Shown in pieces: positions 41,925 to 59,811 of a stretch of 64,000 nucleotides of DNA (position 1 is the stretch's first letter; the number at the start of each line of letters is the position of its first letter). Under the pieces are notes generated by a model. It saw nothing but the letters and a program-made list of their open reading frames with translations. It ran no database searches and had not been told where the DNA came from. Source of the DNA: Longimicrobiales bacterium (GTDB lineage Bacteria > Gemmatimonadota > Gemmatimonadetes > Longimicrobiales > Gaopeijiaceae); contig OZ220732.1 of assembly GCA_965116905.1 (NCBI GenBank), positions 4,000,001 to 4,064,000 of the forward strand. The letters are read 5' to 3'. A program made the position numbers and the translations under genes.

Positions 41925-41926
41925 CC

Positions 41927-43204: not shown

Positions 43205-43210
43205 GAGGTC

Positions 43211-43912
43211 ATGGCAATGAGTAAAACGGCAGCCGCCCGGACCGACGGCGTCTGGAAGGTCTTCCAGCAGGAAGCTGAATCCGTCGAGGCGGTCCGCGAC
43301 GTCAGCCTGACCATAGAGCGTGGCGAGTTCACCGCGCTTGCGGGACCGTCGGGCTCCGGCAAGACGACGCTGCTGAATCTGATCGGTGGCCTGACCAGCC
43401 CCACAAAGGGACGGGTCTGGGTGGCCGGGCACGAGGTGAGCCGCATGTCGACCCGGGATTTGGCGCGGCTACGGCTCGAGGAGGTTGGCTTCGTCTTTCA
43501 GGCCTATAACCTGCTCCCCGTGCTCACGGCATTGGAGAACGCGGAATTCCCGATGCTCCTCCAGGGCGTGCCCGTGAAGGAGCGTCAGGCGCGGGTCCGC
43601 GAACTCTTTGCGCGAACGGGCATGGAAGGGCTCGAAGACCGGCGCCCGGGCAAGCTGTCAGGCGGCCAGCAGCAGCGCGTCGCCGTCGTCCGTGCGGTGG
43701 CTGGCCGTCCGGCCCTCGTGCTTGCGGACGAGCCGACGGCGAACCTCGACTCGGTCACCAGCGAAGCGCTCCTCGATGTCATGGGCGAGCTGAATCGCGA
43801 CCTCGGAGTGACCTTCGTCTTCGCCACCCACGACAGCCGCGTCATGGAGCGGTGCCGGCGTCTGGTCCGCATGGTCGACGGCGCTGTGCGTGACGACGAG
43901 CCCGGATCCTAG
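43211..43912 (+). CDS. ABC ATP-binding protein, LolD/MacB-like
   Basis: GPSGSGKT, GFVFQAYNL, LSGGQQQR, LADEPTANLD, ATHD. Confidence 0.95.
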   Translation: MAMSKTAAARTDGVWKVFQQEAESVEAVRDVSLTIERGEFTALAGPSGSGKTTLLNLIGGLTSPTKGRVWVAGHEVSRMSTRDLARLRLEEVGFVFQAYNLLPVLTALENAEFPMLLQGVPVKERQARVRELFARTGMEGLEDRRPGKLSGGQQQRVAVVRAVAGRPALVLADEPTANLDSVTSEALLDVMGELNRDLGVTFVFATHDSRVMERCRRLVRMVDGAVRDDEPGS

Positions 43913-43933: not shown

Positions 43934-45226
43934 CTAGCAGCCTAGACCCTGGGACACCTGGGCATAGCTGGTAAGCGGGACCGCGCACATCCGATGCCAG
44001 TCCTCCTGGTCGATGACGGGTTGGTTCAACAGTTCAATCATCTCGTCGAAGTCATGGAGCGCGGAGCACCCCACCACCGCCGGGTCCGCTGCCTGCCGGT
44101 GTCGTGGCCAGGCGCGGTCACGAGCATGGCGCCAGAAGCCGCTGTTGTACCTGGAGCCGCACGAGTAGTGCCAGCCGACGAACAGGCCGTAGCGGATCAT
44201 GTTGTTGATGAGGAACCGATTGACCACGGGCGCGTCGCGCTCGAGATGCTCCGGCGGACGGCTGAGGCGCGTCCGGAGCACCATCCCGATCTGCAATTGG
44301 GCGGATACGATCGCCGTTGCCTCGAGCGGCTCCATGAAGGCCGCTGCGTTGCCGATGCGGGCCACGGCACCGTCGTAGATCCGACGGTGGACGAAGTTGG
44401 GAAACCCGATGACGGCGCGCTGCTCAAACTCGGACACGCCGTCGGCCTCGAGGAGCCTGTCAAAATCCGATTCGACGTCGACCAGGCTCGACAGGTTGCC
44501 GTTGAAGACGTACCCGTAGGATGTGTGGGCAGTGAGCGGAATCACGAATACCCAGCCGTGTCGACGCGCAACCGCGCGCGTGTACGTGTGCTGGAGCACC
44601 GGTCCATCCCGCTCTTCGCTGAAGACCGGCGGACAGCGGCGTATGACGGCCGTATCGGTGGGGATGAAGGGAAGGTCGATGTGCTGGTCGGGACGGAGCT
44701 CCCTGGGGAACCCGCGCGCATCGAACACGAGGTCGTACCGTTCCGGCGGCCGGCCCTCGAATTCCACGCGAGCGCCGCCACTCACCCTGGTGATATCGAG
44801 TACCCTCGCATCGATGTGCCGCGCGCGCGTGCCTTCGTGGAGCAGGTCCGCCATCAGGTCGGCGGACAGGTGGTAGGCGTAGGACACCTGCTGCGGCGTG
44901 AAGTAGTGGGTGAAGTCCCGATCGCGTCGGCCCCATCCCTCGAACGCGACACCGTACTTGCGAGTCCCACTCAGGCGCTGCTGTACGGTGTCGTGCGGCA
45001 GACTCGTCAGCTGTTGCAGCTCCCGAACCAGGCTCGGCCAGCTGCCTTCACCGACTCCGATCACCGGGATCCGCGAGTCGTATATGTGGTGCAGCTCGTG
45101 ATCGCTGTCGGGATGAAGACGCGTCACGCTGGCGGCCGCCAGGCACCCTGCGGTCCCTCGCCCCACAACCGCGATCTTCCGTAGGGATTCGCTCTTCCGT
45201 AAGGACTCGGTGCCTGGGTGTATCAC
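43934..45226 (-). CDS. srpI: Flavin-dependent tryptophan halogenase family (putative peptidyl-Trp brominase)
   Basis: VVGRGTAG (GxGxxG), IGVGEGS, TRKYGV (catalytic Lys position), FDARGF, GWVFVIP (WxWxIP variant), IGNAAAFMEPLEAT; GTG start after GGAGG. The symbol is recalled from the srp cluster. Confidence 0.88.
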   Translation of the reverse strand: MIHPGTESLRKSESLRKIAVVGRGTAGCLAAASVTRLHPDSDHELHHIYDSRIPVIGVGEGSWPSLVRELQQLTSLPHDTVQQRLSGTRKYGVAFEGWGRRDRDFTHYFTPQQVSYAYHLSADLMADLLHEGTRARHIDARVLDITRVSGGARVEFEGRPPERYDLVFDARGFPRELRPDQHIDLPFIPTDTAVIRRCPPVFSEERDGPVLQHTYTRAVARRHGWVFVIPLTAHTSYGYVFNGNLSSLVDVESDFDRLLEADGVSEFEQRAVIGFPNFVHRRIYDGAVARIGNAAAFMEPLEATAIVSAQLQIGMVLRTRLSRPPEHLERDAPVVNRFLINNMIRYGLFVGWHYSCGSRYNSGFWRHARDRAWPRHRQAADPAVVGCSALHDFDEMIELLNQPVIDQEDWHRMCAVPLTSYAQVSQGLGC

Positions 45227-45367
45227 CCCAAATGCCCTCCACGACCGTCGACTGCGGGACTCTTCGATGTGCCGCGGACAGCAAGCTAACACGATCTTCG
45301 CATCATCGCCGTCGGCGCGGCTCTCGTCGTTTCCTTGGGGGACGAGGTCTGCACCGTTCACCCGAGG

Positions 45368-45376
45368 TGTTATACT
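45368..45376 (+). promoter_or_regulatory. Extended -10 promoter (TGnTATACT) for the NHLM export/maturation operon
   Basis: TG-T-TATACT in the divergent intergenic region, 57 bp before the GTG at 45433. Confidence 0.5.
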
Positions 45377-45432
45377 ACCCGGCGAGACCGGTCCGTCCCT
45401 GCTTGATCGTGATGAGGAGTCTGTGTGGAGCC

Positions 45433-45984
45433 GTGTTCAATAACCCGCTTGGTTCGTTTCACAATACCGTTGCCGAAGCAAAGGAAGAACGCGAGCAACT
45501 CGACCGTCTGCTGACGGTTTCCACACCGCGAGAGCGCCTGCTTGTCACAGTCATCGCTCTTGTGTTGGTCATCTTCATCACCTGGCTCTTTTTCGGCAGC
45601 GTAGCCCGTAGCCTTGCGATCGACGGCGTACTCGAGGAGTCCGGCCAAAACCTGTCCGAAGCCGCCCAGTCAGTGCAGGCGCTGGTCTGGATCGAGAACG
45701 ACGTTCTGCCCGAGGTCAGGGCCGGGATGCCGGCGTCGATCGAACTGGGCGGGGCGGATGGAGACGCGGGCACGATTGGCGGAGAGATTACGATGATTTC
45801 CGCTGTCCGCCTGCCCGAGCTTCCAGCGGCCTTCGAGTCCGCAGTGCCGGCCTCCGTCCATCGCGTCCAGATCGCGCTCGACGAAAGCCCCGACTCTTCC
45901 TTCGTTGCGGGCCGGGAATGCCGGATCGTCATCGAAATCGGCACCCAGGCTCCGATCGCACTCCTGCGACTGGGGCAACCATAG
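45433..45984 (+). CDS. Short NHLM-system secretion (HlyD-like) accessory protein
   Basis: EQLDRLLTVSTPRERL, one TM ending WLFFGSV...DGVL, and a C-terminal beta domain ending QAPIALL. At 183 aa it lacks the long coiled coil. Confidence 0.72.
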   Translation: MFNNPLGSFHNTVAEAKEEREQLDRLLTVSTPRERLLVTVIALVLVIFITWLFFGSVARSLAIDGVLEESGQNLSEAAQSVQALVWIENDVLPEVRAGMPASIELGGADGDAGTIGGEITMISAVRLPELPAAFESAVPASVHRVQIALDESPDSSFVAGRECRIVIEIGTQAPIALLRLGQP

Positions 45985-45985
45985 C

Positions 45986-48199
45986 ATGCCGTCGATCGCC
46001 TTCAGAGGAGTTGGCGACAAGAAAGCCGCCGGGTTCAAGGCAAAGCACAGGATCACCACGCCCATTGTGCTGCAGGTGCATGCGTCGGAGTGCGGTGCCG
46101 CCTGCCTCGGCAGCATCCTCGGCTACTTCGGACGCTGGGTTCCGCTGACCGAGCTGCGGGAAAGATGCGAAGTGAGTCGAGACGGAAGCAGTGCGGCGAG
46201 CATCGTGCGCGCCGCCAGACATTATGGTCTCGAATCCAGCGGACTCAGTTTGCGCGCCGATCAACTGAAAAAGCTGCCGTTGCCGCTGATCGTGTTCTGG
46301 CAATTCAGTCATTTCCTCATCGTCGAGGGGTTCGACGGCCGCAACTTCTATCTCAATGATCCGTCCACGGGACGGCGCAAGCTTTCCGCCGAGGAGTTCA
46401 CCCGGGGCTACAGTGGCATTGCGCTCCGATTCAAGCCGGGCCCCGACTTCAAACCCGGCGGTGAACGGCCCGGACTGGTCAGACAACTGCACGCCCTGCT
46501 CGCCGGATCATGGGGCGTGCTCACCTGGGTGATCGCGTGCGGCCTCATGTTGACGCTGCTGGCCCTCATTGTCCCCGCATCTCTGGGCGCATTCGTGGAC
46601 GATGTGCTGGAAGACCGGGGGCCCTGGGGCGGCATCGTGACGGCACTGCTCGGCGGCGGCGTCCTCGTCTATATCCTGTCCCTGCTCAAGCACCGGTTCC
46701 TGAAGCGACTCGCAGTCCGGATTTCGGTGACCGGCTACAGTCGTGGCTTGTCGCGGCTGCTGCGGTTGCCGGTGGAGTTCTTCGAACACCGGCTCGTGGG
46801 CGATCTGACGGATCGAGTCTCGTCCATCGACAGGATCGCGAGGAATCTGACGGAGCAGTTTCTTGTGCTCGTTATCGACATGGGAATGAGCGCCGTGCTG
46901 CTTGCTGCCATGTTGGTCTACGACGTCCGGCTCACACTGGTCGTGCTCGTTCTGGCCGTTATGCATGGCGTGCTGGCGCACTTTCTGAACGGCGTCAGAG
47001 CCGTTCGAAGCCAGGCGATGAGACGCGAACAGGGACTGCTGATCGGCATCGGCATGCAGATGCTGAGCCATGCCGACAACCTGCGCATGACGGGATCGGA
47101 CGACCATTTCTTTTCGCGGTGGACCGGTCATCAGGCGCGCGAACTGCATGCGCGCCAGCGCTACTCGGAGCTGGGCTCCGTCAATGCCGCGCTTCCGGGT
47201 CTGATCGTCGCCCTTCGAGGCGCGGCGATCCTGGGCATCGGCGGAAGTCTGGTCCTGGCCGGGGAAATGACCCTGGGGGCGCTGGTCGCGTTCTACATCC
47301 TGAGCGAAATGTTCCTGGCGCCGGTCGGGCGATTCCTGGAGTTCGCCGAGAAGCGCCAGGCCCTCGAAACCGATCTGCAGCGACTCGAAGACATCTCCAG
47401 GACCGCCGAGGACCCCGCCCTCATCCGCCAAAGTCAGCACTCCGAGTCGATTCCGACTTTCAAGGGCCAGCTTCAGCTCGCCGGCCGGCTTGAGCTGCGA
47501 GACGTCACCTTCGGGTTCAACAAGAGCCGGCCGGCTCTCATCAAGGACTTCAACCTCCTGATCAGGCCGGGGCAGCGGGTTGCCGTGGTCGGTCCGAGCG
47601 GTTCCGGCAAGTCGACCCTCGCGCGTCTGATTGCCGGTGTCTACCAGCCCTGGTCGGGCGACATCCTGTTCGATGGCTATCCGCGGGATGAGATTCCCGA
47701 TGGGGTGCTGCGGCAGTCCATCTCCATGGTGGATCAGGAGGTGGTGCTCTTTTCCGCGTCCGTGCGCGACAACATCACCCTGTGGAACCCCGCCGTTCCG
47801 GACGAGGCCATCTTCGCGGCGGCGCGCGACGCCCGGATCCATGACGAAATCCTGCTTCGGCCGGATGGGTACGCCACGCGGGTCGATGAGGGCGGCGTGA
47901 ATTTCAGCGGCGGCCAGCGGCAGCGGCTGGAGATCGCCCGCGGGCTGGTGGGCGATCCCACGCTCCTCATTCTGGATGAGGCGACCAGCGCCCTCGATGC
48001 CGCGACGGAGGAATACGTCGATGATGCCCTGCGCCGTCGGGGTGTCACCTGCCTGATCGTGGCGCACCGGCTGAGCACCGTGCGGGACAGCGACGAGATC
48101 ATCGTGCTCGACAAGGGCGTCGAAGTGCAGCGCGGGACGCACGACGAGCTGATGGGGGATCGGGACGGCACCTACTACAAGCTGGTCAGATCCGGCTGA
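45986..48199 (+). CDS. NHLM-type peptidase-containing ABC transporter (C39 + TMD + NBD)
   Basis: LQVHASECGAACL (Cys), WQFSHF (His), LNDP (Asp); GPSGSGKST, FSGGQRQR, ILDEATS. Confidence 0.95.
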   Translation: MPSIAFRGVGDKKAAGFKAKHRITTPIVLQVHASECGAACLGSILGYFGRWVPLTELRERCEVSRDGSSAASIVRAARHYGLESSGLSLRADQLKKLPLPLIVFWQFSHFLIVEGFDGRNFYLNDPSTGRRKLSAEEFTRGYSGIALRFKPGPDFKPGGERPGLVRQLHALLAGSWGVLTWVIACGLMLTLLALIVPASLGAFVDDVLEDRGPWGGIVTALLGGGVLVYILSLLKHRFLKRLAVRISVTGYSRGLSRLLRLPVEFFEHRLVGDLTDRVSSIDRIARNLTEQFLVLVIDMGMSAVLLAAMLVYDVRLTLVVLVLAVMHGVLAHFLNGVRAVRSQAMRREQGLLIGIGMQMLSHADNLRMTGSDDHFFSRWTGHQARELHARQRYSELGSVNAALPGLIVALRGAAILGIGGSLVLAGEMTLGALVAFYILSEMFLAPVGRFLEFAEKRQALETDLQRLEDISRTAEDPALIRQSQHSESIPTFKGQLQLAGRLELRDVTFGFNKSRPALIKDFNLLIRPGQRVAVVGPSGSGKSTLARLIAGVYQPWSGDILFDGYPRDEIPDGVLRQSISMVDQEVVLFSASVRDNITLWNPAVPDEAIFAAARDARIHDEILLRPDGYATRVDEGGVNFSGGQRQRLEIARGLVGDPTLLILDEATSALDAATEEYVDDALRRRGVTCLIVAHRLSTVRDSDEIIVLDKGVEVQRGTHDELMGDRDGTYYKLVRSG

Positions 48200-51138
48200 T
48201 GCGGGACACGAGGCCGGAGCACACGTCCATTGCGGAACTCGCCACCAGCGCGGGCGAGTCCGTGCCCTGCGCCGGCAACCTGCCCGTGAAGCTCGACGAC
48301 CCGGACTCCGTCTGGTTCATCGACGAGGGCGCCGTCAATCTGTTCCTGGTCGAATTCAGGGACGGGTTGGATCATGCGGCACCCCAGCACCTGCTCCGCC
48401 GCGAAGCGGGCTGGCTGCTGCCGGGCGTCGCACCCAACGAACCGCACGGGGCGGAAGATACCACGCTCAGCCTGGTCGCCAAGGGATCGCCGGGCACCAT
48501 TCTGAAGCGCCTGCCGGCATCCCTGCTCTCCGAGGTCGATCCGGCGGAGCTGGCGGAACAGACGGAAACCTGGCTGGCCGCGATCACGGACACCCTCTCG
48601 CGCTTTGCGAGTCACCGTCCACGGCCGACGGCGCTGGCCGAGCCCGGTCTGACACGGAGCCTCGCCCCCTGTACGCTCTCCGTACGACGAGGCGTCGTAT
48701 GGGTATCCGAACCCCCACGCGGCGCCAGCCTCTTCATGGACCTGGTCGACCAGGCGGCACTTACCGGAGGGAGCGGCCCGCACGAAGCGCTGATACCGCT
48801 GACGCGGGCAAGCTGGCTCACGCTCTCGGACGAGGTAACGCTCTCGGCCAGTTCGACCGAGACACTGGCACGGCAGGGCACCCTGCTCTCGGCGCTCGCA
48901 TCCTTTCACGCGGTCGCCTTCGCCGTGGAGCGCCTGAACCGCGTACTGGCCGTAGTCGACCACGCGAATCTCGAACGCGCGCGGACCACGAGCCGCTACG
49001 CGGCCGAGAGAACTGCGCGGCAGCGGCTTTTCAACATCTATGACCTGCCGATCGACCGGGACGCGAGTGTCGAGGACACGTCGCTGGCGGACGCGCTGCA
49101 GCCGATCGGACGCCGTGAAGGGATTGATTTCAAGATCCCCGTGCGCCCGGGATCCTCCGGTGCCCCGGTCAGCCTCGTCGACGTCCTCGTCGCTTCAGGC
49201 GTGCGCGCCCGGCGCGTGCGGTTCACGAACGAGGGCGCCTGGTGGCGGGGCGACAGCAACGCGATGCTGGCGTTCCGCGCCGAAGGCGGCCAGCCTGTGG
49301 CGCTCCTGCCGGGATGGTTCGGGCGCTACCGGGAATTCGACCCGGTCAGCAAGCGTAGTGTCCGGATGACGGCGGATCGTGCCGCCGCGCTGGCGGACGA
49401 GGCCTGGGTGTTCTACCGGCCGCTGCCCGAGGGGAACGTGAGGCCGGCGGACCTGCTGAGATTCGCGCTGCGTGGATCGGCCGCGGATCTGGCGCGGCTG
49501 GTGATGGCCGGCCTTCCGGGCGGCCTGATCAAGCTGGTGCCCGCACTCGCGCTCGGGTTCGTCGCAAACCAGACGGCGGGCGGCGGAACCGCCGGAGCGG
49601 TCTATGCCGCGGCCGTGGCGGTGGCGGGCTTCGGCGTGCTCGGCGCCCTGCTGCACCTGCTTCAATCCACGGCGATGACGCGGCTCGAGGGGCGCTCGGC
49701 TTCGCGCGTCGAAGCGGCGTTCTGGGACCGCCTCATGCGCCTTCCGCCAAGCATTCTGCACCGCCATCCGTCGGGCGATCTGGCCATGTCGGGGATGACG
49801 TTCCAGAATCTCCGCGACGGGTTGCAAGGCGTCGTTGCCGACGGCCTGCTATCGATCCTCTTTCTGCTTCCGGTTCTTGGTGTCATCTTCCTCTACGATG
49901 CCACCCTCGGGGCCATCGCCCTCGCCTTCAGCCTGGTTTCGCTCCTGATCACGGTTGTCCTCGGACTGCGCCAGGTTCCCCCCTGCGGGCGGATGATCCG
50001 CGCGGCGCGGCGCGTCTCCGGCCGGTTGTTCCAGATCGTGGGCGGCATAAGCAGACTGCGTGTGGAAAACGCGGAAGCGTCCGCTTTCGCCATGTGGGCG
50101 CGGGACTACCGGGAGCAGAAACGCGCCGAGCTCGAAATGGCCGGGCTCGAGGGACATTCGCGCGCATTCGGCGCCGCGCTCCCCTTTCTTGCCGCCGGGG
50201 TCCTGCTGGCGGTCGTGGCCGTGGGCGACAGGGACCTTCCGGTGGGCGATTTTCTCGTCGTCTACCTCGTCCTCATCGCCTTCCAGTACGCCATCGCCCG
50301 ACTCGGCGAATCCCTTGGCACGGTCGCCGCCATGCTCCCGGGGTTCGACCAGATGCGCCCGCTCCTCGCCGCGGCTCCCGAGACCGAGGCCGAAGGAGCG
50401 CCGGTCGAGTATCTGGGCGGCGACATTCTCTTCGACCGCATTTCCTTCCGGTACGATCCCGACGGGCCGCTGATCCTGGACGATGTCACGATCCGCGCCC
50501 GCCCCGGAGAATTCATCGCGATCGCGGGTGAGTCCGGCGCCGGCAAGAGCACCCTCTTCCGGCTGGCGCTCGGATTCGACCGGCCCACCGCCGGCGCGGT
50601 CTATTACGATGGACGCGACCTGAGGCACCTGAACCTGAAGCAGGTGCGCCGCAGAATCGGCGCGGTGCCGCAATCCGTCGGCCTGCATCCCCTCGATATC
50701 TGGGACAATCTCGTCGGTCACCACGATAAGGTGGCGAGTGACGAGGTATGGGCGGCGGCGCGAGTCGCCAACGTCGAAGAAGAGATCAAGAGCATGCCGA
50801 TGGGCATGATGACCATGGTCGGCACGAGCGGAAGCGTCCTGTCGGGCGGCGAGAGTCAACGTGTCACTATTGCCCGGTCGGTGATCGGCAGCCCGCAGAT
50901 CATGCTCTTCGACGAGGCCACCAACTGGCTGGACAACGAGAGCCAGGCCAATGTCATGCGGAATCTCAACGCCCTGACCTCGACCCGGGTTGTTATCGCG
51001 CACCGCTTGTCCACCCTGGAACAGGCCGATCGCATCTACGTGCTGCAGGCCGGAAAAGTCGTACAGAGCGGCTCCTTCGACGAACTCTTGGAGGGCGACG
51101 GGGTGTTCAGGGAGTTGGTGAAAAGGCAGATCGCCTAG
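48199..51138 (+). CDS. NHLM-type second ABC transporter subunit (no peptidase)
   Basis: N-terminal cNMP-binding-like segment (VWFIDEGAVNLF), SGVRARRV...WW, FYRPLP, TMD, GESGAGKST, LSGGESQR, FDEAT; coupled to the previous gene. Confidence 0.92.
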   Translation: MRDTRPEHTSIAELATSAGESVPCAGNLPVKLDDPDSVWFIDEGAVNLFLVEFRDGLDHAAPQHLLRREAGWLLPGVAPNEPHGAEDTTLSLVAKGSPGTILKRLPASLLSEVDPAELAEQTETWLAAITDTLSRFASHRPRPTALAEPGLTRSLAPCTLSVRRGVVWVSEPPRGASLFMDLVDQAALTGGSGPHEALIPLTRASWLTLSDEVTLSASSTETLARQGTLLSALASFHAVAFAVERLNRVLAVVDHANLERARTTSRYAAERTARQRLFNIYDLPIDRDASVEDTSLADALQPIGRREGIDFKIPVRPGSSGAPVSLVDVLVASGVRARRVRFTNEGAWWRGDSNAMLAFRAEGGQPVALLPGWFGRYREFDPVSKRSVRMTADRAAALADEAWVFYRPLPEGNVRPADLLRFALRGSAADLARLVMAGLPGGLIKLVPALALGFVANQTAGGGTAGAVYAAAVAVAGFGVLGALLHLLQSTAMTRLEGRSASRVEAAFWDRLMRLPPSILHRHPSGDLAMSGMTFQNLRDGLQGVVADGLLSILFLLPVLGVIFLYDATLGAIALAFSLVSLLITVVLGLRQVPPCGRMIRAARRVSGRLFQIVGGISRLRVENAEASAFAMWARDYREQKRAELEMAGLEGHSRAFGAALPFLAAGVLLAVVAVGDRDLPVGDFLVVYLVLIAFQYAIARLGESLGTVAAMLPGFDQMRPLLAAAPETEAEGAPVEYLGGDILFDRISFRYDPDGPLILDDVTIRARPGEFIAIAGESGAGKSTLFRLALGFDRPTAGAVYYDGRDLRHLNLKQVRRRIGAVPQSVGLHPLDIWDNLVGHHDKVASDEVWAAARVANVEEEIKSMPMGMMTMVGTSGSVLSGGESQRVTIARSVIGSPQIMLFDEATNWLDNESQANVMRNLNALTSTRVVIAHRLSTLEQADRIYVLQAGKVVQSGSFDELLEGDGVFRELVKRQIA

Positions 51139-51265: not shown

Positions 51266-52564
51266 ATGAACGGATCGATTGACGCGCACACCCTCGTATC
51301 GAGAGCCGACAAGGACAGCGACTTTCGCGAACGTCTTCTCCGGCACCCCAGGGAAACCGTCGAGAAGGAATTCGGCGTGACGCTGCCGGAAGACCATGAG
51401 ATTCACGTACACGAGGAGACCTATGGCGCGACACATGTGGTGCTTCCGCCGCGGAACAGGTTCAGCGAGGCCGAGCGGGAGGCGGCCAGGACCGGCAGGG
51501 CATCGCTCGAGTATCTTCGGAGTACTCTCCACGATCCCGCACCGCCCCTTCGTTCTCCGGCACCGAAACGAGGCGAAGTCCGAAGCGGCGGGGCCGGCTC
51601 CGAGGCGCTTGCAGAGGCGGCGAGGGAAGGGATCCGCCGAGGGCTTGCCTTCCTGGAATCCACAATCGACGAGAATGGGGCTTGGCACTGCATCCGGTTC
51701 AACGTTGCCGACCCGGACATTCCCAGGCACTTCGAGAGGCCTCCTTTCGTGTCGGCTCTCTGCGCGCTCGCCCTTGAGAGATCCGATGAGCCGCGGGCCA
51801 GGGCGATATGCACGGCGACGAAGGCGTATCTCATCGACACCATCGAGTATCCCGGACTGTGGCGATACTACCGTCACCTGCCCCCGGATCTCGACAGTAC
51901 CTCGCTCTGTGCGATGGTTATCGGGACGCACCCCTGGATCTGGCTCGGACGGAATGTTCCCGGGATACTGGCGAATCGCGACGAGGAGGGCCGCTTCATG
52001 ACCTGGGTGCTGGCGGAAGACGAACCCGATGTCGTGTCGCCGTTTCGCATCGAGGCCGACCCCGTCGTCAATGCGAACGTCATCGCCTGGCTGGGCGACC
52101 GTCCGGAAACCAGGGATGCCCAGCGATGGTTGGAACACCTGGTGACCGATGGGAGCCTGGAGGGCTCGTCGAAATGGTATCCCGACACGATCTCGATCCA
52201 CTATGCGATCGCCCGCGCGACGGTTCGCGCAAAGCCCGCCCTCGAGGCGTTGCGCCCGATGCTCGCAGATCGTATCCTCGGCCTCCGTGACCGGAAGGGA
52301 GGATTCGGCAACGTTCTTCAGACCGCTCAGGCGGTGTCGGCGCTCTACAGTGTCGGAAGCCTCGGGCGCATCGACGTGAAGCGGGAGGTGGAGGGGCTGA
52401 TGAACTCGCAGCGCGGGGACGGCAGCTGGCCGGAGCTGCTCGCGTTCGGCGACCAATCGTTGAAGTGGGGTTTGGTGGGGCAGATCGGGCATGGCTCCGA
52501 GGCCGTGACCTCCGCGTTCTGTATCGAGGCCCTGGAGTGTCTCGTCGAAGGGCTTGGGGCCTGA
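51266..52564 (+). CDS. NHLP-leader domain fused to a prenyltransferase/squalene-cyclase-repeat (class II terpene cyclase-like) domain
   Basis: Residues 1-77 align with the precursor leader (DSDFRERLLRHP...EFGVTLP...IHVHEE...HVVLPP). The rest has QW-like repeats (FLESTIDENGAW, LRDRKGGFG, MNSQRGDGSW), PPDLDSTS at the DxDD position, VVNANV and GSEAVTSAFCIEAL. Confidence 0.8.
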   Translation: MNGSIDAHTLVSRADKDSDFRERLLRHPRETVEKEFGVTLPEDHEIHVHEETYGATHVVLPPRNRFSEAEREAARTGRASLEYLRSTLHDPAPPLRSPAPKRGEVRSGGAGSEALAEAAREGIRRGLAFLESTIDENGAWHCIRFNVADPDIPRHFERPPFVSALCALALERSDEPRARAICTATKAYLIDTIEYPGLWRYYRHLPPDLDSTSLCAMVIGTHPWIWLGRNVPGILANRDEEGRFMTWVLAEDEPDVVSPFRIEADPVVNANVIAWLGDRPETRDAQRWLEHLVTDGSLEGSSKWYPDTISIHYAIARATVRAKPALEALRPMLADRILGLRDRKGGFGNVLQTAQAVSALYSVGSLGRIDVKREVEGLMNSQRGDGSWPELLAFGDQSLKWGLVGQIGHGSEAVTSAFCIEALECLVEGLGA

Positions 52565-52566
52565 GC

Positions 52567-54888
52567 GTGCCCACCGATACGGCGCGCGCGGGCCCACGGC
52601 CCGGGATCCTGGCCCGGACGACTCTCGCGGACCGGGGCATCGTCAAGCTTCCCGCGCTCACCCCGCACCTTCGATTCCACGATATCGGCGAGGGGCGGGT
52701 GCTCCTCGTCTCCGAGTCGTTCAATACGCTGCTGCACGGCAAGCTGTACGGCGACTTGCTGCCGCTGCTCGACGGCCGGCACGCCGGGGACGAGATCGTC
52801 GCGGCCCTCGAGGGCGCCCACGCGCCCACCAACGTCCTGGCGGCCCTGGCCGCGTTCGCCGCCAAGGGGTACCTGGTCTCCGCCGATCACGGGATGGACC
52901 TGTGCCAGGCAGCCTACTGGTCGTCGCTCGGGGCGTCGCCACGCTGGGCCGAGGAGCGGCTGGCGCAGGCGCGCGTCACGGTCGAGGGTGACGACGGCCG
53001 GCTCGCCCGGCATCTGGAGGAGGCCGGCGCCAGCGTGGGAGGCACCGGTCCGGCGCTGACCGTCGTCGTCTGCGCCGACTATCTCGATGCGCATCTCGCC
53101 GAGGTGAATCGGCGCCAGCTCAAGGCGAGAGCGCCGTGGACCCTGGCGCGGCCGAGCGGGATGGAGCCGCTGTTCGGCCCCATCTTCCGCGCTGACGGGC
53201 GGGGGCCTTGCTGGGACTGCCTCGCATGCCGCCTGCGCAGCCACGGGGAAGTCCACGCTTTCCTGCGCAACGTCGCCGGCGAGGAAGCCGCCTTCAGGCC
53301 GTTCGCGGCCCAGCCGGCCGCGCTGGGAGCAGTGTACGGGCTGATCGCGGCGGAGATCGTCAAATGGCTGGTGCTGGATCAGGCGGCCCCGATTCACGAA
53401 CAGGCGATCGCGATGGACATCGCCACATTCACGAGTTCGCAGCACCGGGTCGTGCGCAGGCCGCAGTGTCCGGAGTGCGGCGACGAGGCCCTGCGCCGGC
53501 CGGATCGACCGCCCCTTCCGGTGTCTCTGAAGGCGAGCCCCAAGGCCCATCGCAACAGCGGCGGCGCGCGCGCCGTGCCGCCGGGAGCCACCCTGGCGAA
53601 GTACCGGCATCTGGTGAGCCCGGTCAGCGGCGTCGTCACCTGGCTGTCGCGCACCACCGATGAGACCGACTCCTGGCTGCACGTCTACTGGGCCGGGAGC
53701 AATTCCGGGATGAGAAGCCGAAGCCTGAGTTCGCTGAGGCGCAGCCTGCGCAGCAAGAGCGCCGGCAAGGGCAGCACCCGGCAGCAGTCCAGGGTCAGCG
53801 CGCTTTGCGAGGCGATCGAGCGGCATTCGGGCGCCCGCCATGGGGACGAGATCCGTGTTGCCAGGCGATTCATCGAGTTCGCCGGGCGAGAAGAGGCGAT
53901 CCACCCCAACGATGTGCAGCTGTTCAGCGAGAGTCAGCTCGACGACGCGGAGAGCATCAACGCGAAGGGCCACCCCTACAACATCGTCCCGCCACGTCTC
54001 GATCCCGACGCCGAGATCGATTGGACCCCGGTCTGGTCATTGACGCAGCGGCGGCACCGGTACCTGCCCACGTCCATCCTGTACAGCATGCTGGCCGAGG
54101 AGCGCGGCCCTGCGGACCTGATTGCCGATTCGAACGGATGCGCCGCGGGCAACACCCTTGAAGAGGCGATCCTGCAGGGTTTCTACGAACTGGCCGAGCG
54201 CGATGCGTTCGCCGTCTGGTGGTACAACCGGCTGCAAGTGCCGGCGGTCGATCTTTCCAGCTTCGACGACGAGTACCTCGAATCGGCCGCGGACTACTAC
54301 GGCCGCCATGAGCGGGACCTGTGGATGCTCGACGTCACCTCCGATATCGGCATTCCCACCTTCGTCGCGCTCTCGCGTCGGCCGAACGCCGAAACCGAGG
54401 ACATCATCTACGGCGCCGGCACCCACGCCGACCCGCGGATCGCCGCCCTGCGCGCGCTCTGTGAACTGAACCAGTGCCTCACCTGGCTGCCGCGTCCCGG
54501 GGCGGCGGACGGCCGGCCCAGGATCGACGATCCGCTGGCGCTCCGGTGGTGGAAGACCGCCCGCCTCGCCGAATGTTCCTGGCTGGCGCCGGCGCCGGAC
54601 GAGCCGCTCCGCAGGGCTTCGCAGTATCCGGTGACCGAAGCGGCGGACACGCGCGAAGATGTGGAATACTGCCGCTCGCTTGTCGAAGCCAGGGGCATGG
54701 AGTTCCTGGTGCTCGATCAGACGCGGCCGGATATCGGCATGCCCGTGGCCCGGGTCATCGTGCCGGGCATGCGCCATTTCTGGGCAAGGTTCGCGCCCGG
54801 GCGCCTGTACGACGTGCCCGTCCATCTGGGGTACCGCGAGCACCCGCTCTCCGAAACCGGCCTGAATCCCGCACCTGTGATTGCGTGA
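52567..54888 (+). CDS. srpC: Fused E1-like/YcaO cyclodehydratase (TOMM C-D fusion)
   Basis: N-terminal RRE-like region, GPCWDCL and PQCPECG zinc sites, SAGKG, CEAIER, SNGCAAGNTLEEAILQGFYELAERDA, C-terminal LNPAPVIA. The symbol is recalled from the srp cluster. Confidence 0.94.
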   Translation: MPTDTARAGPRPGILARTTLADRGIVKLPALTPHLRFHDIGEGRVLLVSESFNTLLHGKLYGDLLPLLDGRHAGDEIVAALEGAHAPTNVLAALAAFAAKGYLVSADHGMDLCQAAYWSSLGASPRWAEERLAQARVTVEGDDGRLARHLEEAGASVGGTGPALTVVVCADYLDAHLAEVNRRQLKARAPWTLARPSGMEPLFGPIFRADGRGPCWDCLACRLRSHGEVHAFLRNVAGEEAAFRPFAAQPAALGAVYGLIAAEIVKWLVLDQAAPIHEQAIAMDIATFTSSQHRVVRRPQCPECGDEALRRPDRPPLPVSLKASPKAHRNSGGARAVPPGATLAKYRHLVSPVSGVVTWLSRTTDETDSWLHVYWAGSNSGMRSRSLSSLRRSLRSKSAGKGSTRQQSRVSALCEAIERHSGARHGDEIRVARRFIEFAGREEAIHPNDVQLFSESQLDDAESINAKGHPYNIVPPRLDPDAEIDWTPVWSLTQRRHRYLPTSILYSMLAEERGPADLIADSNGCAAGNTLEEAILQGFYELAERDAFAVWWYNRLQVPAVDLSSFDDEYLESAADYYGRHERDLWMLDVTSDIGIPTFVALSRRPNAETEDIIYGAGTHADPRIAALRALCELNQCLTWLPRPGAADGRPRIDDPLALRWWKTARLAECSWLAPAPDEPLRRASQYPVTEAADTREDVEYCRSLVEARGMEFLVLDQTRPDIGMPVARVIVPGMRHFWARFAPGRLYDVPVHLGYREHPLSETGLNPAPVIA

Positions 54889-54895
54889 GGAGAAC

Positions 54896-56008
54896 ATGGA
54901 TACCGACGCGGCCGTCGCACTGACCCAGGACCGTCTCGCCGAGGAGGGCGACACGATGGGTGAGCTGCTCGGGCACTTCCGAAATCGAATCTCGCCGGTC
55001 CTGATCGGAGATCCGCAGTGGGAGCGCATACTCGAGCGCGCCGGAAAGCTCCCCATCACAATGGGCGCGCTGCCATTCGGTTTCGAACTGCCGCTGCATG
55101 CAAGCGAGCCCAGGGCGGACTTCGGCGTCTCCCTCGCGAGCGGAACGAGAACGGCGGCCTTTTTCCAAGCGCGCGCACGCACCGACGCGACGGATGAGAC
55201 CGCGAGGGTGATCACGCGGCTCTTCGGCCGGATGGAGACGGAAGACTCGCCCCTGCGTGGGATTGTCGGCCGCAAACTGATGCTGGAATACGATATCGGC
55301 TCGGCAGGAGACGGTGAGCGTTCACTTCCGGGAATGTTCCTCCGGCCCGGTGAACGCCCGATTCTCGGCGCCCGCGGCCAGGTGGATGATGTCCGTGCGG
55401 TCGCGGACGCGCTGTTCTCCTGCGCAGGCTGGGAGATGAGCGGCCCCGAGCGCGAGAACATCGAACGGGTCTACCTGGCACAGCCGGGAGACACGCGCAT
55501 GGATTCGTTCGGTGTGTTCCCGTCGCGCTCGCGGTTCATCCGCCTGGCGATCATGGGCTTCAGATCGCGGCACGCGACGTGGTGCTATCTCGAAGACGCC
55601 GGCTGGCCGGGTCATATCCCGGCTGTCGACTCCCTGATCGCGCGCTTCGACGAGCGCGCGAGCATTCGCAGGACCGGGGTGAACATCGATGTGCGGGAGG
55701 AGGGCGTCGGACCGACGCTCGGCCTCACGCTCATCGTCAAGCAACGTTATACGAAGGACTCGCGCTATTGGCTCGACGGCCTGACCGATTGGCAGCCGTT
55801 CCTGGAGGCCCTGGGCCATGAGGACCTTGTCGTTCCGGAGAAGCTCGGGGCGCTTGCCGGCTGGGTCTCGAAGCCGACAACGCTCTTTGGGAAGTCCGGG
55901 CGGTTCGTGCTGCTGCGTGGCATTCACCATATCAAGCTGGTCGTATCCGGAGACCGGCTTCGACAAGCCAAGGCCTACGTGTTCATGGTGCTTTCCGGGG
56001 CGGTGTAG
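54896..56008 (+). CDS. Hypothetical protein; candidate ABBA (PT-barrel) peptide prenyltransferase
   Basis: GAGGAG RBS directly after YcaO; five apparent beta-hairpins separated by helical segments. The CDS is secure; the function is inference. Confidence 0.6.
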   Translation: MDTDAAVALTQDRLAEEGDTMGELLGHFRNRISPVLIGDPQWERILERAGKLPITMGALPFGFELPLHASEPRADFGVSLASGTRTAAFFQARARTDATDETARVITRLFGRMETEDSPLRGIVGRKLMLEYDIGSAGDGERSLPGMFLRPGERPILGARGQVDDVRAVADALFSCAGWEMSGPERENIERVYLAQPGDTRMDSFGVFPSRSRFIRLAIMGFRSRHATWCYLEDAGWPGHIPAVDSLIARFDERASIRRTGVNIDVREEGVGPTLGLTLIVKQRYTKDSRYWLDGLTDWQPFLEALGHEDLVVPEKLGALAGWVSKPTTLFGKSGRFVLLRGIHHIKLVVSGDRLRQAKAYVFMVLSGAV

Positions 56009-56032: not shown

Positions 56033-58465
56033 TTAGCGTCCCGTCCCGAAGTTCGGCGCGAGCGTCTCGATCCCCGCGGCGGCGCCCGATGCGGTTTCCT
56101 CGATCACCGCGGCGAGCGCATCGAAATCGTCCACCCCGCAGAGGCCGGCGATCGTGGCCCTGGCTCCGGTGGCCGCCGATTCGACCTCGAACCCCTCGTC
56201 CGCGACAAGCCGCAGCGCGCCGCGGAGATTCCGCCACAGCGCCGCCGCCGCCGCGAGCCGCTCGGCGGCATCCTCAGTGATCAACCCACGATCGCCCGCC
56301 GCCCGGAAAGTGTGCTCCGCGTCGCCCGCCGGACGTGCCGCCGCATCGCCGCCGGGCGCCATGCGCAGGAACAGCGCGGCGCGTTCGATGTCTCGAAGAC
56401 CTCCCCGCATCGTGGCGATCGACTCCAGGTCCGGTACGCCGGTTTCGGCGGCATGCTCTCCGGGCTTGCGCAATTCAGCCAGCAGCATCTCGCGAACCGA
56501 AGGTCCGCCCAGCGCCTCGCGCAGCCCTACGGACACCCGTTCCGCAACGTCCTCGTCGCCCGATCCCCACACGCACCGGGCCCGCGCCAGACCCACCGGA
56601 TCCCATCCCGAACCGGGGTTGCGGAGTTGTTCGGCGAATGCGTCAAGCGGCTGGATCTCGCCCGCCCCGCCACGCGTGAACGATTGGGGCGACAGCAGCA
56701 GGTTGTTGCGGGTCAGCGCGCGCAGCGCCTTCCGGAAGCGGCCGCACAGTTTCCGATAGTGCCTGGCCGGGGTTCCCTCGTACACGAACCGGATGTCGAG
56801 CGTCTCGCCCGGCATCGCTTCTCCGCTCGCCAGGGGTCCCTCCACGACGACCGCCACGCCGCCGCTGCCCTGCGGCACACCGCGATCGGCAAAGTCCTCC
56901 TCTACCGCGGACAGCACGGTGGCGATGGAGGCCTCCCCGACGCGTGACAACGCCGTCACCGCCTCGGCGATCGACAAGCTCCCGCGCATCGTGTGCACCG
57001 CGATCTGGAAGACCTTGCCGTTCGACCACTCGCGCGCCGCATCCACCGCCTCGCTGGCGTCCTGCACGTGAGTGTCGGCAAGCTGGGCCTTCATCTCGGC
57101 CACGCCGAGTTCGTGGGTCCAGTACAGGCGTGCCAGTCCGCACCGGGCAATCGCCTCGGATTCCGGGTCCGACAGGAAGCCCTCCGGGAGCTCCAGATCC
57201 GTGAACTCCCGCTCCCTGAGCATGTCGAGCAACACCGGGGCACGGTTGATCCATCCGGCAATGCGAGGAGCGGCGGCGTGAATCTCGGCGATCGCGTCGA
57301 ATGCGTCGGGGCGTGCCGCGAACGCCCGGCTGTCATAGGCGCTCCAGTCCTTGATGTCGGGATAGAACTGCGCCCGCTGAAGATCGAGCAGGGGGTCGAT
57401 GGTCTGGAACCACCGCTTGGGGAAGAGGGCCAGGCCGTTCATCTGAATGTAGCTGCCCGGCAGCTGCGGCGAGGCGGCCTCGTTGTGATGCTGAAGCAGC
57501 GGATAGCGCCGGTTCGACGTGTGGTGGTCGGCGTGGCGCTGCATGTTGTAGTACAGCCAGTTGGTGAACTTGTAGGCCGCGCTCCAGGCGTGCCGCGGCT
57601 TGACGGGCTCGAACCGGCCGGCCGGCGTGAGGACCCGTCGCAACCCGTAGTGCTGCACATAGTTGCTGATCTTCATCGAGAATACGACGTTGCCGCACAG
57701 AACCACGTAGACCAGGGCTGCCCACGGACCGCCCATCCAGAGTATGATCCCGTACCAGAAGATGAGCTGCACGGCGTAGCGCCAGAACGCGTTCGTATGG
57801 TGCCATGCCGGCAACTGGCGACGCGTCAGGCGGCGGCGTTCGAACCGCCAGGCCCCCAACAGGTTGTTCGCCACCTCCGCGGGCAGGTATCGCCAGAAGC
57901 TCAGACCCTTCGGAGAGGACCCCGGGTCCCGGGGCGTGCACACCCACGGATGATGAATGTAGACGTGCTCGGTTGCATAGTGCGGGTAGGAGACGGAAGC
58001 CAGCAGGAACTCGCCGAGGCGACGCTCCCAGAGAGCGCGGCGGTGGACCAGCTCGTGGCCGACGATGAAGACGGTCTGTCCCACCATCGTGAGAATCACG
58101 GCCACGCACCAGACTTCCCACAGCGCCAGATGATCGGAAACCAGTGCCTGCCAGAGCGCGAAGATGAACGTGGCCGGCCAGAGCACCGCCCAGAGCCAGA
58201 GCGAGAGCTTGTACAGAAACAGCTGGCTCTCGCTGGTGGTGGCCGGATCCATGTTCCGCTCCTCCAGGCCGAATATCCTGTCGAAGCGGTCCGCGAGCGC
58301 GTAGAAGACCAGCGGCACCGCGATCCACCAGCCACCGAACACCGCGGCGCACGCGACGAGCGGAAAGATCGCAAGGGGCGCGAAGTGTGGGAGCGCATTC
58401 GCAACGGAAGCCTCGACGATTCTCCGTTCCATGGCCACGGGGGGACTCGTACTGTGTGCTTCCAT
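56033..58465 (-). CDS. AlkB-type membrane di-iron monooxygenase fused to a degenerate GlnE-like adenylyltransferase domain
   Basis: AlkB boxes GHELVH, EHVYIHH, NYVQHYGL, NMQRHADHH, PQLP.SY. C-terminal ~420 aa resembles GlnE AT (P.LLDML, ALSRVGEA.I..VL..VEEDF, VAVVVEGPLA..E, LDIRFVY, ARAR, RGGLRDIE). ATG at 58465 inferred. Confidence 0.78.
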   Translation of the reverse strand: MEAHSTSPPVAMERRIVEASVANALPHFAPLAIFPLVACAAVFGGWWIAVPLVFYALADRFDRIFGLEERNMDPATTSESQLFLYKLSLWLWAVLWPATFIFALWQALVSDHLALWEVWCVAVILTMVGQTVFIVGHELVHRRALWERRLGEFLLASVSYPHYATEHVYIHHPWVCTPRDPGSSPKGLSFWRYLPAEVANNLLGAWRFERRRLTRRQLPAWHHTNAFWRYAVQLIFWYGIILWMGGPWAALVYVVLCGNVVFSMKISNYVQHYGLRRVLTPAGRFEPVKPRHAWSAAYKFTNWLYYNMQRHADHHTSNRRYPLLQHHNEAASPQLPGSYIQMNGLALFPKRWFQTIDPLLDLQRAQFYPDIKDWSAYDSRAFAARPDAFDAIAEIHAAAPRIAGWINRAPVLLDMLREREFTDLELPEGFLSDPESEAIARCGLARLYWTHELGVAEMKAQLADTHVQDASEAVDAAREWSNGKVFQIAVHTMRGSLSIAEAVTALSRVGEASIATVLSAVEEDFADRGVPQGSGGVAVVVEGPLASGEAMPGETLDIRFVYEGTPARHYRKLCGRFRKALRALTRNNLLLSPQSFTRGGAGEIQPLDAFAEQLRNPGSGWDPVGLARARCVWGSGDEDVAERVSVGLREALGGPSVREMLLAELRKPGEHAAETGVPDLESIATMRGGLRDIERAALFLRMAPGGDAAARPAGDAEHTFRAAGDRGLITEDAAERLAAAAALWRNLRGALRLVADEGFEVESAATGARATIAGLCGVDDFDALAAVIEETASGAAAGIETLAPNFGTGR

Positions 58466-58572
58466 CGTCGAAACCCTCGGCTTATTGCAATCGCTCCCCC
58501 GCACGTCCGATCCCAACGTATTCTTGCCTGCCGCGCCCCGTCGGTCAACTGTCGTCCTGCGCCCCGCGCCTC

Positions 58573-59811
58573 CTACCCCGGCATCCTCCGGAACAGCCGC
58601 AGCAGCGAAGCGAACGCCAGCGCATACATCACCGCCCCGAGCAGGAACGGCGCCCCCGCCAGCTCCATCGGCGCATCCGGCGAAGTGAAGTAGCTGAACA
58701 GGCCCGCGGTGAAGATCAGCGGCGCCAGGATGCTCGTCAGGCTCATCAGCGACGTGATGCCCCCCTGCACCTTCCCCTGGTCCTCGGGCGGCACCGAACC
58801 GGCGACCAGGCTCTGGATCGCGGGGCCCGCCACACCCCCGATGGAGCCGAAGACGATGAACGCGAACAGCATCCACCCGGCGGTCGCCAGCCCGTATCCG
58901 AGGTAGGTGATGACCGCGACGACGAGGCCGTACAGGATCGCTCGGCGTTCACCGAGCCTGCCTACAATCGGCCGCACCAGTCCCCCCTGGACGATCGCCG
59001 CCATCACCCCGACCAGCATGAGCGAGAAGCCGTTCATCTGCTCGTCCCAACCGAACTTGTGGCCGGTGTAGAGGACCCAGACCGTCTCGAGACCGCGCTG
59101 CGCAAGCACGACGAAGACGAATGCGCCGGTGAGGCCCGCCACCAGCGGATACGACCCGAGCACGTAGAGGCTGCCAACCGGATTCGCCTTCCTCCAACTG
59201 AACGCGTCCCGCTTTTCCGGCGGCAGCGACTCGGGCAGAACGAAGAAGCCGTAGAGCCAGTTCACCAGCGCGAGACCCGCCGAGACAAAGAAGGGGAGCC
59301 GCAGGTCGATCCCTCCGAGGATTCCCCCCAGGCCCGGGCCGAAGATGAAGCCAAGCCCGAACGCCACGCCGATCAGACCGAAGTTGCGCGCCCGGTCCTC
59401 CGGCTTCGACACGTCCGCGATATAGGCGTTGGCGGTGGTGATGCTCGCCCCCATCACGCCGGCGATCAGCCGGCCCACGAAGAGCCAGACCAGGGACGGC
59501 GCGAATCCCATGATGATGTAGTCCACACCGAGCCCGAACAGCGAAATCAGGATCACGGGCCTGCGCCCCACGCGGTCGGACAACGCTCCGAGCACCGGTG
59601 CGAAGATGAACTGGGTGAGCGCGTAGGTGGAGGCCAGGACGCCGAACCAGCGCCCGGCAAGGGTGGTGCTGCCCCCGGCGAAGTCCTTGATCAGTTCCGG
59701 GAGAATGGGGATGATGACCCCAATCCCCAACACGTCGATGAAGACCGTGATGAGGATGAAGATCATGGCGGCCTGACGGCCGCGTCCCGGTACCGGCAAG
59801 AGCACCTCCAC
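58573..59811 (-). CDS. TCR/Tet-family MFS transporter
   Basis: FIDVLGIG..IP.LP, motif A GALSDRVGRRPV, AYIADVS, FG.GFIFGP; 12 TM segments. Confidence 0.92.
   Translation of the reverse strand: MEVLLPVPGRGRQAAMIFILITVFIDVLGIGVIIPILPELIKDFAGGSTTLAGRWFGVLASTYALTQFIFAPVLGALSDRVGRRPVILISLFGLGVDYIIMGFAPSLVWLFVGRLIAGVMGASITTANAYIADVSKPEDRARNFGLIGVAFGLGFIFGPGLGGILGGIDLRLPFFVSAGLALVNWLYGFFVLPESLPPEKRDAFSWRKANPVGSLYVLGSYPLVAGLTGAFVFVVLAQRGLETVWVLYTGHKFGWDEQMNGFSLMLVGVMAAIVQGGLVRPIVGRLGERRAILYGLVVAVITYLGYGLATAGWMLFAFIVFGSIGGVAGPAIQSLVAGSVPPEDQGKVQGGITSLMSLTSILAPLIFTAGLFSYFTSPDAPMELAGAPFLLGAVMYALAFASLLRLFRRMPG

Follow-up and report, generated by a model that had tools for sequence, protein, structure and literature searches.

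A cyclase-like protein carrying an NHLP-like domain, candidate partner of a predicted ABBA prenyltransferase in an srp gene cluster

Known systems and the locus under study

The srp (sponge-derived RiPP proteusin) cluster of sponge microbiomes, a gene cluster for peptides made by ribosomes and modified after translation (RiPPs), was reportedly first published by Nguyen et al. in JACS in 2021. Its precursor SrpE carries the core LCCCW; the YcaO enzyme SrpC builds three thiazolines in it, and SrpI adds bromine to indole C6 of the terminal Trp (PMC10286304, PMC10858898). In sponges, 191 srp precursors have been described across phyla; they are highly transcribed, and their ecological role is elusive (bioRxiv 2023.06.09.544420). 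The srp texts compared cover the precursor, the YcaO enzyme and the brominase; they make no mention of a prenyltransferase, of a terpene cyclase or of another NHLP domain, although Nguyen et al. 2021 may do so. The term "squalene-hopene cyclase" was not found in the srp literature searched, nor "naturally fused" among the matches listed; the supplementary files of PMC10858898 gave no match for "cyclase", "prenyl" or "BGC" (biosynthetic gene cluster), and PMC9505594 does not mention srp. The locus analyzed here lies in a stretch of 64,000 nucleotides from a Longimicrobiales bacterium (GCA_965116905.1, contig OZ220732.1, positions 4,000,001 to 4,064,000 of the forward strand), called the window, in which positions are counted from its first letter. 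Within it, a gene at 51266-52564 (+) encodes a protein of 432 residues that joins an NHLP-like domain, similar to the leader of an srp precursor, to a predicted single-domain class II terpene cyclase.

Two peptide maturases, NctPC and ChrPC, are said to have been described by Hubrich et al. in Chem in 2024. According to a review, both prenylate the Trp of ribosomal peptides and contain an MstE-like cyclase domain, NctPC geranylgeranylating Trp and then cyclizing the chain (PMC13290415). Compared by this described architecture, the present locus shares with them an ABBA-type prenyltransferase, an MstE-like single-domain cyclase and a Trp peptide as the likely substrate. It differs in that the two enzymes, one chain in NctPC and ChrPC, are encoded here by separate genes, the cyclase bearing an NHLP-like domain, and also in a DxDS motif, a His at a pocket position that is usually aromatic and a five-residue core with thiazolines and bromo-Trp. 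The srp cluster and prenyltransferase-cyclase chemistry are both published; what sets this locus apart is the split pair with a cyclase that carries an NHLP-like domain. Such a pair was not found in the literature searched, the scope of which did not extend to Nguyen 2021, Hubrich 2024 and their supplements. On balance, we favor the view that the fusion protein supplies the cyclase in a prenyltransferase-cyclase pair split between two genes and would cyclize an isoprenoid carried by the LCCCW peptide.

Each half of the protein has characterized relatives. With the drimenol synthase AsDMS (PDB 9MHS, 9M7F) and MstE, the barrel shares a single beta-domain fold, a DxD(T/S)T motif, the catalytic Asp and Tyr and several cation-pi aromatic residues; it differs from AsDMS in that the fusion has no HAD phosphatase domain, keeps the diphosphate residues only in part and is about 20% identical. 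With NHLP or proteusin leaders (TIGR03793; MprE7, 8TB1) and the alpha subunit of nitrile hydratase, the N-terminal domain shares three helices, two strands, a Pro-Pro motif and a Gly at -1 in register. Unlike these leaders, it has neither the LxxxxL motif nor a short modifiable core and is a lasting part of an enzyme. Engineered leader-enzyme fusions and self-modifying borosins differ from the fusion described here in that the protein includes a working leader or the substrate itself.

A conserved fusion protein

The open reading frame starts at the ATG at 51266, and homologs begin at the equivalent Met. Its product consists of the NHLP-like domain (residues 1-77; 51266-51496, +), in which LxxxxL is replaced by FxxxxR and which ends in TG where the precursor has AG; a conserved segment free of Cys and Trp that stands where the precursor has its core peptide (residues 78-94; 51497-51547, +); a variable linker (residues 95-112; 51548-51601, +); and the class II terpene cyclase beta domain, assigned from fold, profile and residues (barrel at about residues 113-430; 51602-52561, +). 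When 7995 candidate proteins were scored in a search with the fusion, 1093 proved to be relatives, and the top 120 have 74-100% identity. Genome loci, taken as the best 80 of 221 stretches encoding a relative, come by record title from Gemmatimonadota, Alpha- and Gammaproteobacteria, Nitrospirales, Binatia, Bryobacterales and others. As NHLP-like domain and barrel share one stop-free frame in 80/80 loci, the joining is no assembly or frameshift artifact. Ratios of nonsynonymous to synonymous substitution (dN/dS), computed for 400 random pairs drawn from 81 fusion sequences, were 0.24 (residues 17-62), 0.27 (residues 63-77), 0.18 (segment 78-94), 0.75 (linker) and 0.16 (barrel), and the segment 78-94 is about as conserved as the barrel by mean top-residue frequency (0.91 vs 0.88). 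The fusion is real and old, and its leader-like domain is under purifying selection.

The predicted structure of the fusion has a mean predicted local distance difference test score (pLDDT) of 85. No internal promoter or terminator was found around the gene. Profile search of the genome with the profiles used here gave no second cyclase or prenyltransferase gene, and the only other NHLP-like match was a nitrile hydratase alpha gene outside the window (G000:C1:1789615-1790376, +), which has a long His-rich N-terminal extension. Contigs from three RNA runs of one sponge study overlay the fusion gene, about 91-92% alike over 455 and 486 bases, and come from related strains; such contigs can neither show transcription nor rank genes and were not used as evidence.

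The barrel as a class II terpene cyclase

Foldseek returned AsDMS first (E 9e-12), followed by single-domain squalene-hopene-cyclase-like proteins and MstE. Among the 48,161 chains compared by VIA-align, AsDMS reached Z 31.4 (root-mean-square deviation 2.4 A, 282 residues) and the top ten were all class II cyclases (Z 21.6-31.4); the beta subunits of protein farnesyltransferase (FTase) and protein geranylgeranyltransferase (GGTase-I) stood at ranks 44-45 with Z 15.2, below glycoside hydrolases. A barrel profile matches 9mhs at E 3.5e-30, and PF13243 (squalene-hopene cyclase C-terminal) matches residues 352-391 just under its cut-off. The original prediction, read from the DNA letters, had proposed a class II cyclase barrel with QW-type repeats and a DLDS motif, and this description holds: by eye, two QW-like motifs lie near residues 131-140 and 380-388, and the motif D208-L-D210-S211 places D210 (codon 51893-51895) at the general-acid position. 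In the fusion, the N-terminal HAD phosphatase domain of drimenol synthases is not found, the first 112 residues being NHLP-like domain and linker.

D208, D210 and Y305 align with AsDMS D331, D333 and Y427, and the AsDMS variants D331A/N, D333N and Y427F are fully inactive (PMC12365925). Another paper numbers these AsDMS residues ten lower and gives the motif as DXDT (PMC12232559). Among the 122 rows profiled, D210 is present in 122, D208 in 121, Y305 in 119 and F161 in 114. Because the catalytic residues are kept and AsDMS itself has Thr at the fourth place, DLDS is better seen as a normal variant than as a sign of decay. Judged from the model, the barrel very probably has a class II cyclase fold with intact catalytic residues.

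The leader-like domain

The N-terminal domain was first noticed as a match to the precursor leader, and the comparison upholds it: precursor residues 11-78 and fusion residues 10-77 align ungapped at 35% identity over 68 residues (BLASTP, E 2e-15 for the pair). TIGR03793, the NHLP leader model, matches fusion residues 9-69 at E 5e-13 with 48.7 bits, slightly under the cut-off of 50.9, and the precursor with 69.9 bits. Predicted secondary structure gives helices at 7-16, 18-26 and 28-36 and strands at 47-50 and 56-59; the three-helix, two-strand NHLP nucleus is present in the fusion model, with pLDDT 82-88 for residues 11-40 and lower values further on, and the domain matches 8tb1 at E 0.013. 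Conservation in this region centers on the strand region with His44, His49 and His57, the Pro-Pro motif, which keeps the same spacing from the -1 Gly as in leaders, and the segment 78-94. The three His are invariant in 122/122 fusion proteins (residues 44-57, 51395-51436, +); His44 has no counterpart in precursors, and together they may form a metal or binding site.

At the positions by which leaders are recognized, precursor L(-7), I(-4) and A(-2) correspond to R71, A74 and T76 in the fusion; the exchanges of Leu for Arg and Ile for Ala at key hydrophobic positions had been read correctly at the outset. The 122 fusion proteins have Arg at -7 (121), Ala at -4 (120), Thr at -2 (106), Leu or Phe at -12 (118) and Gly (G77) at -1 (122), whereas the 61 precursors have Leu or Met at -7, Ile or Val at -4 and Ala at -2 (61/61 for -7 and -2). 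The L(X)4L motif at -12 to -7 is not kept in the domain. The site itself reads TG in 106/122 and is followed by 355 residues, the first 17 of which contain neither Cys nor Trp, that is, by no short modifiable core. SrpI requires both Leu of the LxxxxL motif (PMC10858898), and the YcaO enzyme MprC requires this motif and helix 1 (PMC12455567). C39 domains recognize hydrophobic residues at -4, -7 and -12, and LahT150 is inactive on leaders without these three (PMC10885120); Ala at -4 falls in the range listed there, so that the case against C39 cutting rests mainly on -7. With these signals lost, both roles once suggested for the leader copy, docking at the leader site of the YcaO enzyme or halogenase and serving as a tag for C39 export, are unlikely as judged from these residues. 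The leader-like domain is probably a permanent module that is not cleaved.

As to its origin, 19 fusion domains have a mean identity of 43% to six precursors of a sister cluster (see below) and of 33% to 14 srp precursors. One tree grouped the fusion domains with the sister precursors (support 96/92). When nitrile hydratase repeats served as the outgroup, both groupings passed an approximately unbiased (AU) test (p 0.65 and 0.67), and either an srp or a sister precursor may have been the donor. The idea that the enzyme carries its own leader has to be revised accordingly: by sequence comparison, the domain appears to be an old, diverged paralog and not a copy of the leader of its own cluster. 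A borosin-like self-modification was also considered and rejected, the segment 78-94 having no Cys or Trp and a separate precursor being present.

A predicted ABBA prenyltransferase and related clusters

Two genes downstream of the fusion gene, an open reading frame at 54881-56008 (+) encodes the candidate partner, a predicted ABBA-fold prenyltransferase seen in 69/80 loci. Its model has pLDDT 91, and all Foldseek matches listed are ABBA prenyltransferases (best E 2e-6; template modeling score about 0.4-0.57); the Atlas provides a lead in the same direction. By sequence, it has no Pfam, NCBIfam or solved-structure (PDB) match. An ABBA-fold prenyltransferase and a single-domain class II cyclase, both as predicted folds, are here found together in one ribosomal peptide cluster, as separate genes at this locus and in the 69/80 loci showing the prenyltransferase. 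A profile built from 69 srp orthologs of this protein and run over 270 collected proteins matches 3/270, namely the N-terminal halves of P0224 (E 5e-10), P0217 (2e-5) and P0194 (0.002), whose C-terminal halves are relatives of the barrel. Counts given here use this srp-only profile, because a profile from alignment A3 held full-length fusions and produced false prenyltransferase matches on cyclase reading frames. P0185 appears, by eye, to link the barrel with an Asp-rich helical domain. Such layouts are those reviewed for NctPC and ChrPC (PMC13290415). Among 7996 candidates for a longer form of the prenyltransferase there was one match, P0271, which joins YcaO and prenyltransferase parts in what seems to be a deletion or misassembly, and it was not used. 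The genome has two polyprenyl synthase genes, and at least one was present in all 14 control genomes.

A metagenome scan with 24 unfused relatives of the cyclase gave 277 stretches, of which the best 80 were kept, comprising 19 fusions and 61 unfused genes. At L082, L091 and L096, the gene order is prenyltransferase, unfused cyclase and NHLP precursors. These belong to a sister cluster (L082:6919-9564, L091:1048-5223, L096:5579-8339 and L139) that combines an ABBA prenyltransferase, an unfused cyclase with the motif DNDDT, C39 transporters and at least two NHLP precursors whose short cores contain Trp, and it offers a simpler system for the same chemistry. Among sister-cluster precursors that are complete and have a clear Gly-Gly site, Trp is found in the core in 7/7.

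The surrounding srp cluster

The precursor of the window is an SrpE-type NHLP protein at 40275-40526 (+) of 83 residues, ending in EAISAG followed by the core LCCCW. An SrpI-type flavin-dependent halogenase is encoded at 43934-45361 (-) and probably begins near 45190; in it, 21 residues separate a Lys from a PQQVS loop, the same spacing as between K84 and P105(-S109) in SrpI (PMC10858898). Directly after the fusion gene, 52567-54888 (+) encodes an SrpC-type YcaO cyclodehydratase with a leader-binding domain (PF02624, TIGR03604 and TIGR03882 above cut-off). An LCCCW NHLP precursor, a YcaO enzyme and an SrpI-type halogenase are all present, and by these features the locus matches the srp cluster published from sponge microbiomes, with which it shares the 83-residue LCCCW precursor, the YcaO enzyme, the SrpI-type Lys and loop and the spread over many phyla. 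The original prediction had recognized neither this match nor the connection to NctPC and ChrPC. Export would be served by a C39 peptidase/ABC exporter at 45986-48199 (+; PF03412; TIGR03796 at 833 bits vs a cut-off of 853), a second ABC exporter subunit at 48199-51138 (+; TIGR03797 at 666 bits vs 709) and a short HlyD-like secretion accessory protein at 45232-45984 (+; weak TIGR03794 match, E 8e-5, far under cut-off). The HlyD-like protein is about half the usual length and has no counterpart to most of the TIGR03794 model; the short form is kept in 51/80 loci.

Downstream of the prenyltransferase gene, 56033-58486 (-) encodes an AlkB-type di-iron hydroxylase fused to a GlnE-like domain (8f6t at E 8e-52; Pfam; 66/80 loci), and its likeness to alkane 1-monooxygenase fits a lipid-bearing product. 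The fusion of AlkB with a GlnE-like adenylyltransferase is unusual, is of the membrane type and often follows directly after the cyclase gene. Across the 80 loci, counted over flanks of up to 10 kb, many of them cut by contig ends, the fusion gene is accompanied by YcaO (73 loci), the prenyltransferase (69), the AlkB fusion (66), the precursor (61) and the halogenase (52). Among 81 genomes of the same order, which are kin and not independent, the precursor occurs in 9 and a full-length fusion in the same 9, and 3 others have weak barrel matches only. Variant srp precursors with cores WCCCG... or LCCCGW were seen at L048:18603-18848, L062:18420-18665 and L067:12626-12877, those at L048 and L062 being second precursors next to a normal one. 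Two FtsX-type permeases and a LolD-type ATPase lie between precursor and halogenase (40668-43912, +), found in only 7-13/80 loci, all of them from the closest relatives, and a Tet(A)-like major facilitator superfamily transporter (58573-59811, -; below all curated cut-offs) adjoins the cluster.

Proposed pathway and alternatives

The cluster product is likely a peptide-terpenoid hybrid. In the proposed pathway, the YcaO enzyme would turn the three Cys into thiazolines and the halogenase would brominate the C-terminal Trp, steps that are published for orthologs. The ABBA-fold protein (54881-56008) may then add a geranyl, farnesyl or geranylgeranyl group to the leader-bound peptide, most likely at Trp. 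D210, held by D208 and Y305, would protonate the terminal double bond of this chain, with the aromatic pocket guiding ring closure. Modification of the lipid by oxidation through the AlkB-like protein is speculative. By family, the C39 transporter would cleave the precursor at AG and export the product. That the cyclase acts on the prenylated srp peptide seems fairly probable, and cyclization of an attached isoprenoid, one of two activities first suggested for the barrel, is still its likeliest activity given the cyclase fold and residues and the ABBA partner, as modeled.

How the cyclase would find its substrate is a further matter, and our preferred guess is that the leader-like domain recruits it by pairing with the folded leader of the precursor. 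In the alpha subunit of nitrile hydratase, two NHLP-like stretches occur within a single chain, a hint that domains of this kind can pair. Pairing with the precursor had also been raised in the original prediction; it gains weak support from a complex model of fusion and precursor, which scored 0.42, the best of three controls scoring 0.00, with runs agreeing in at least 94% of contacts and a partner pLDDT of at least 70. The mark used for such complexes was reached by 116/157 solved complexes and 2/215 mismatches, but at 0.60 or below by only 18/157 and by both mismatches. Binding of the precursor by the leader-like domain is conceivable, at somewhat less than an even chance. More tentative still, and rather unlikely as a whole, is a leader turned leader receptor, in which the two-repeat arrangement of nitrile hydratase would be rebuilt between proteins and deliver the prenylated core to the cyclase.

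Several observations weigh against a pathway of this kind. Cyclase activity, substrate and product are all predictions. Within the pocket, S211 is found in 49/49 srp-clade rows, where 59/73 others have Asp, and H409, at the cation-pi position of AsDMS F518, is likewise found in 49/49, where 64/73 others have Phe, Trp or Tyr; with these changes, the enzyme may form an unusual product or have lower activity. Among the six diphosphate ligands of AsDMS, R378 corresponds to R261 and R425 to K303, Y373 and Y426 to Trp and R380 to Glu, and R513 is unmatched; R261 and K303, invariant in 49/49 srp-clade rows, may fit a free prenyl diphosphate as well. Only 8 of the 61 unfused barrel loci, many of which are <5 kb and several near copies, have a prenyltransferase homolog and 7 an NHLP gene, which suggests that the wider cyclase family is not tied to peptides, and the unfused cyclases beside NHLP precursors indicate that a leader-like domain is not generally needed. 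Residues 51-90 of the fusion are modeled at pLDDT 52-56 only. The complex score lies in a range more often wrong than right, leaves the binding domain unspecified, as there is no interface, and may reflect the likeness to nitrile hydratase. By analogy, prenylation would also have to be compatible with C6 bromination of the same Trp.

The same chemistry could proceed with a leader-like domain that does not bind the precursor: together with the segment 78-94 it might cap the pocket in cis, or it might dock the cyclase on the prenyltransferase or another enzyme. Capping would suit a segment conserved like the barrel, and single-domain cyclases are described as closing their active sites with extra loops (PMC12232559), but residues 51-90 are not posed with confidence in the monomer model. 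Docking might use a site meant for the folded part of leaders, the ABBA prenyltransferase MppC binding the folded nucleus of a long leader (PMC12715784), and would restore by binding what NctPC has by fusion; the fused prenyltransferase and cyclase of relatives are in keeping with the prenyltransferase as the partner, yet a domain docked where the substrate binds would be in competition with it. We regard these roles as unlikely, if still to be reckoned with. Much the least favored role for the domain is that of a working leader, which the halogenase or the YcaO enzyme would bind at its LxxxxL site or which C39 would cut to release or export the cyclase. The invariant G77, the kept Pro-Pro spacing and Leu or Phe at -12 in 118/122 speak for it; set against them are Arg at -7 in 121/122 and Thr at -2 in 106/122, where 61/61 precursors have Leu/Met and Ala, and the demands of SrpI and MprC for both motif Leu (PMC10858898, PMC12455567) and of LahT150 for three hydrophobic residues (PMC10885120), which make it very improbable.

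Other alternatives concern the chemistry itself. Drimenyl-type diphosphates are non-allylic and would be poor donors, which counts against an order in which free farnesyl or geranylgeranyl diphosphate (FPP or GGPP) would be cyclized first and the ABBA enzyme would then transfer the cyclic terpenyl group, the terpenoid otherwise being a separate product. This order draws on AsDMS, the nearest solved structure, which cyclizes free FPP without metal, and on R261 and K303, invariant in the srp clade and aligned with AsDMS R378 and R425. The essential diphosphate residues Y373 and Y426 of AsDMS are Trp here, however, R380 is Glu and no Arg takes the place of R513, and in the characterized peptide systems, prenylation comes first and cyclization second (PMC13290415), so that we give it a small chance. 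The original prediction had also allowed that the barrel itself transfers a prenyl group to Cys or Trp, like the beta subunit of farnesyltransferase. Both folds are alpha/alpha toroids, and the FTase and GGTase-I beta subunits are indeed found at Z 15.2, but class II cyclases reach Z 21.6-31.4 and glycoside hydrolases outrank the prenyltransferases. Beta subunits of protein prenyltransferases have a Zn-binding Asp-x-Cys motif, which is not in the barrel, where the site reads DLDS with no Cys. The protonation residues are kept, the cluster has a dedicated enzyme of predicted ABBA fold two genes downstream and the three Cys are consumed by thiazoline formation, and prenyl transfer by the barrel is hardly to be expected.

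Significance

With genes for a prenyltransferase, a class II cyclase and an alkane-type hydroxylase at its core, the cluster is predicted to make a lipophilic peptide-terpenoid, whose masses can be calculated and which could be looked for directly in sponge extracts or reconstituted in E. coli; the chemistry described in the srp texts compared is limited to thiazoline formation and bromination. Because a tailoring enzyme here bears a conserved leader domain of non-canonical type, the use made of the folded part in long leaders can be tested directly. If the leader-like domain does act as a leader receptor, it would recognize the substrate in a way new to the biosynthesis of ribosomal peptides, and if the proposed pathway is correct, a cluster that ranks among the most widespread and highly transcribed in sponge microbiomes would yield a brominated tri-thiazoline peptide bearing a cyclic terpenoid.

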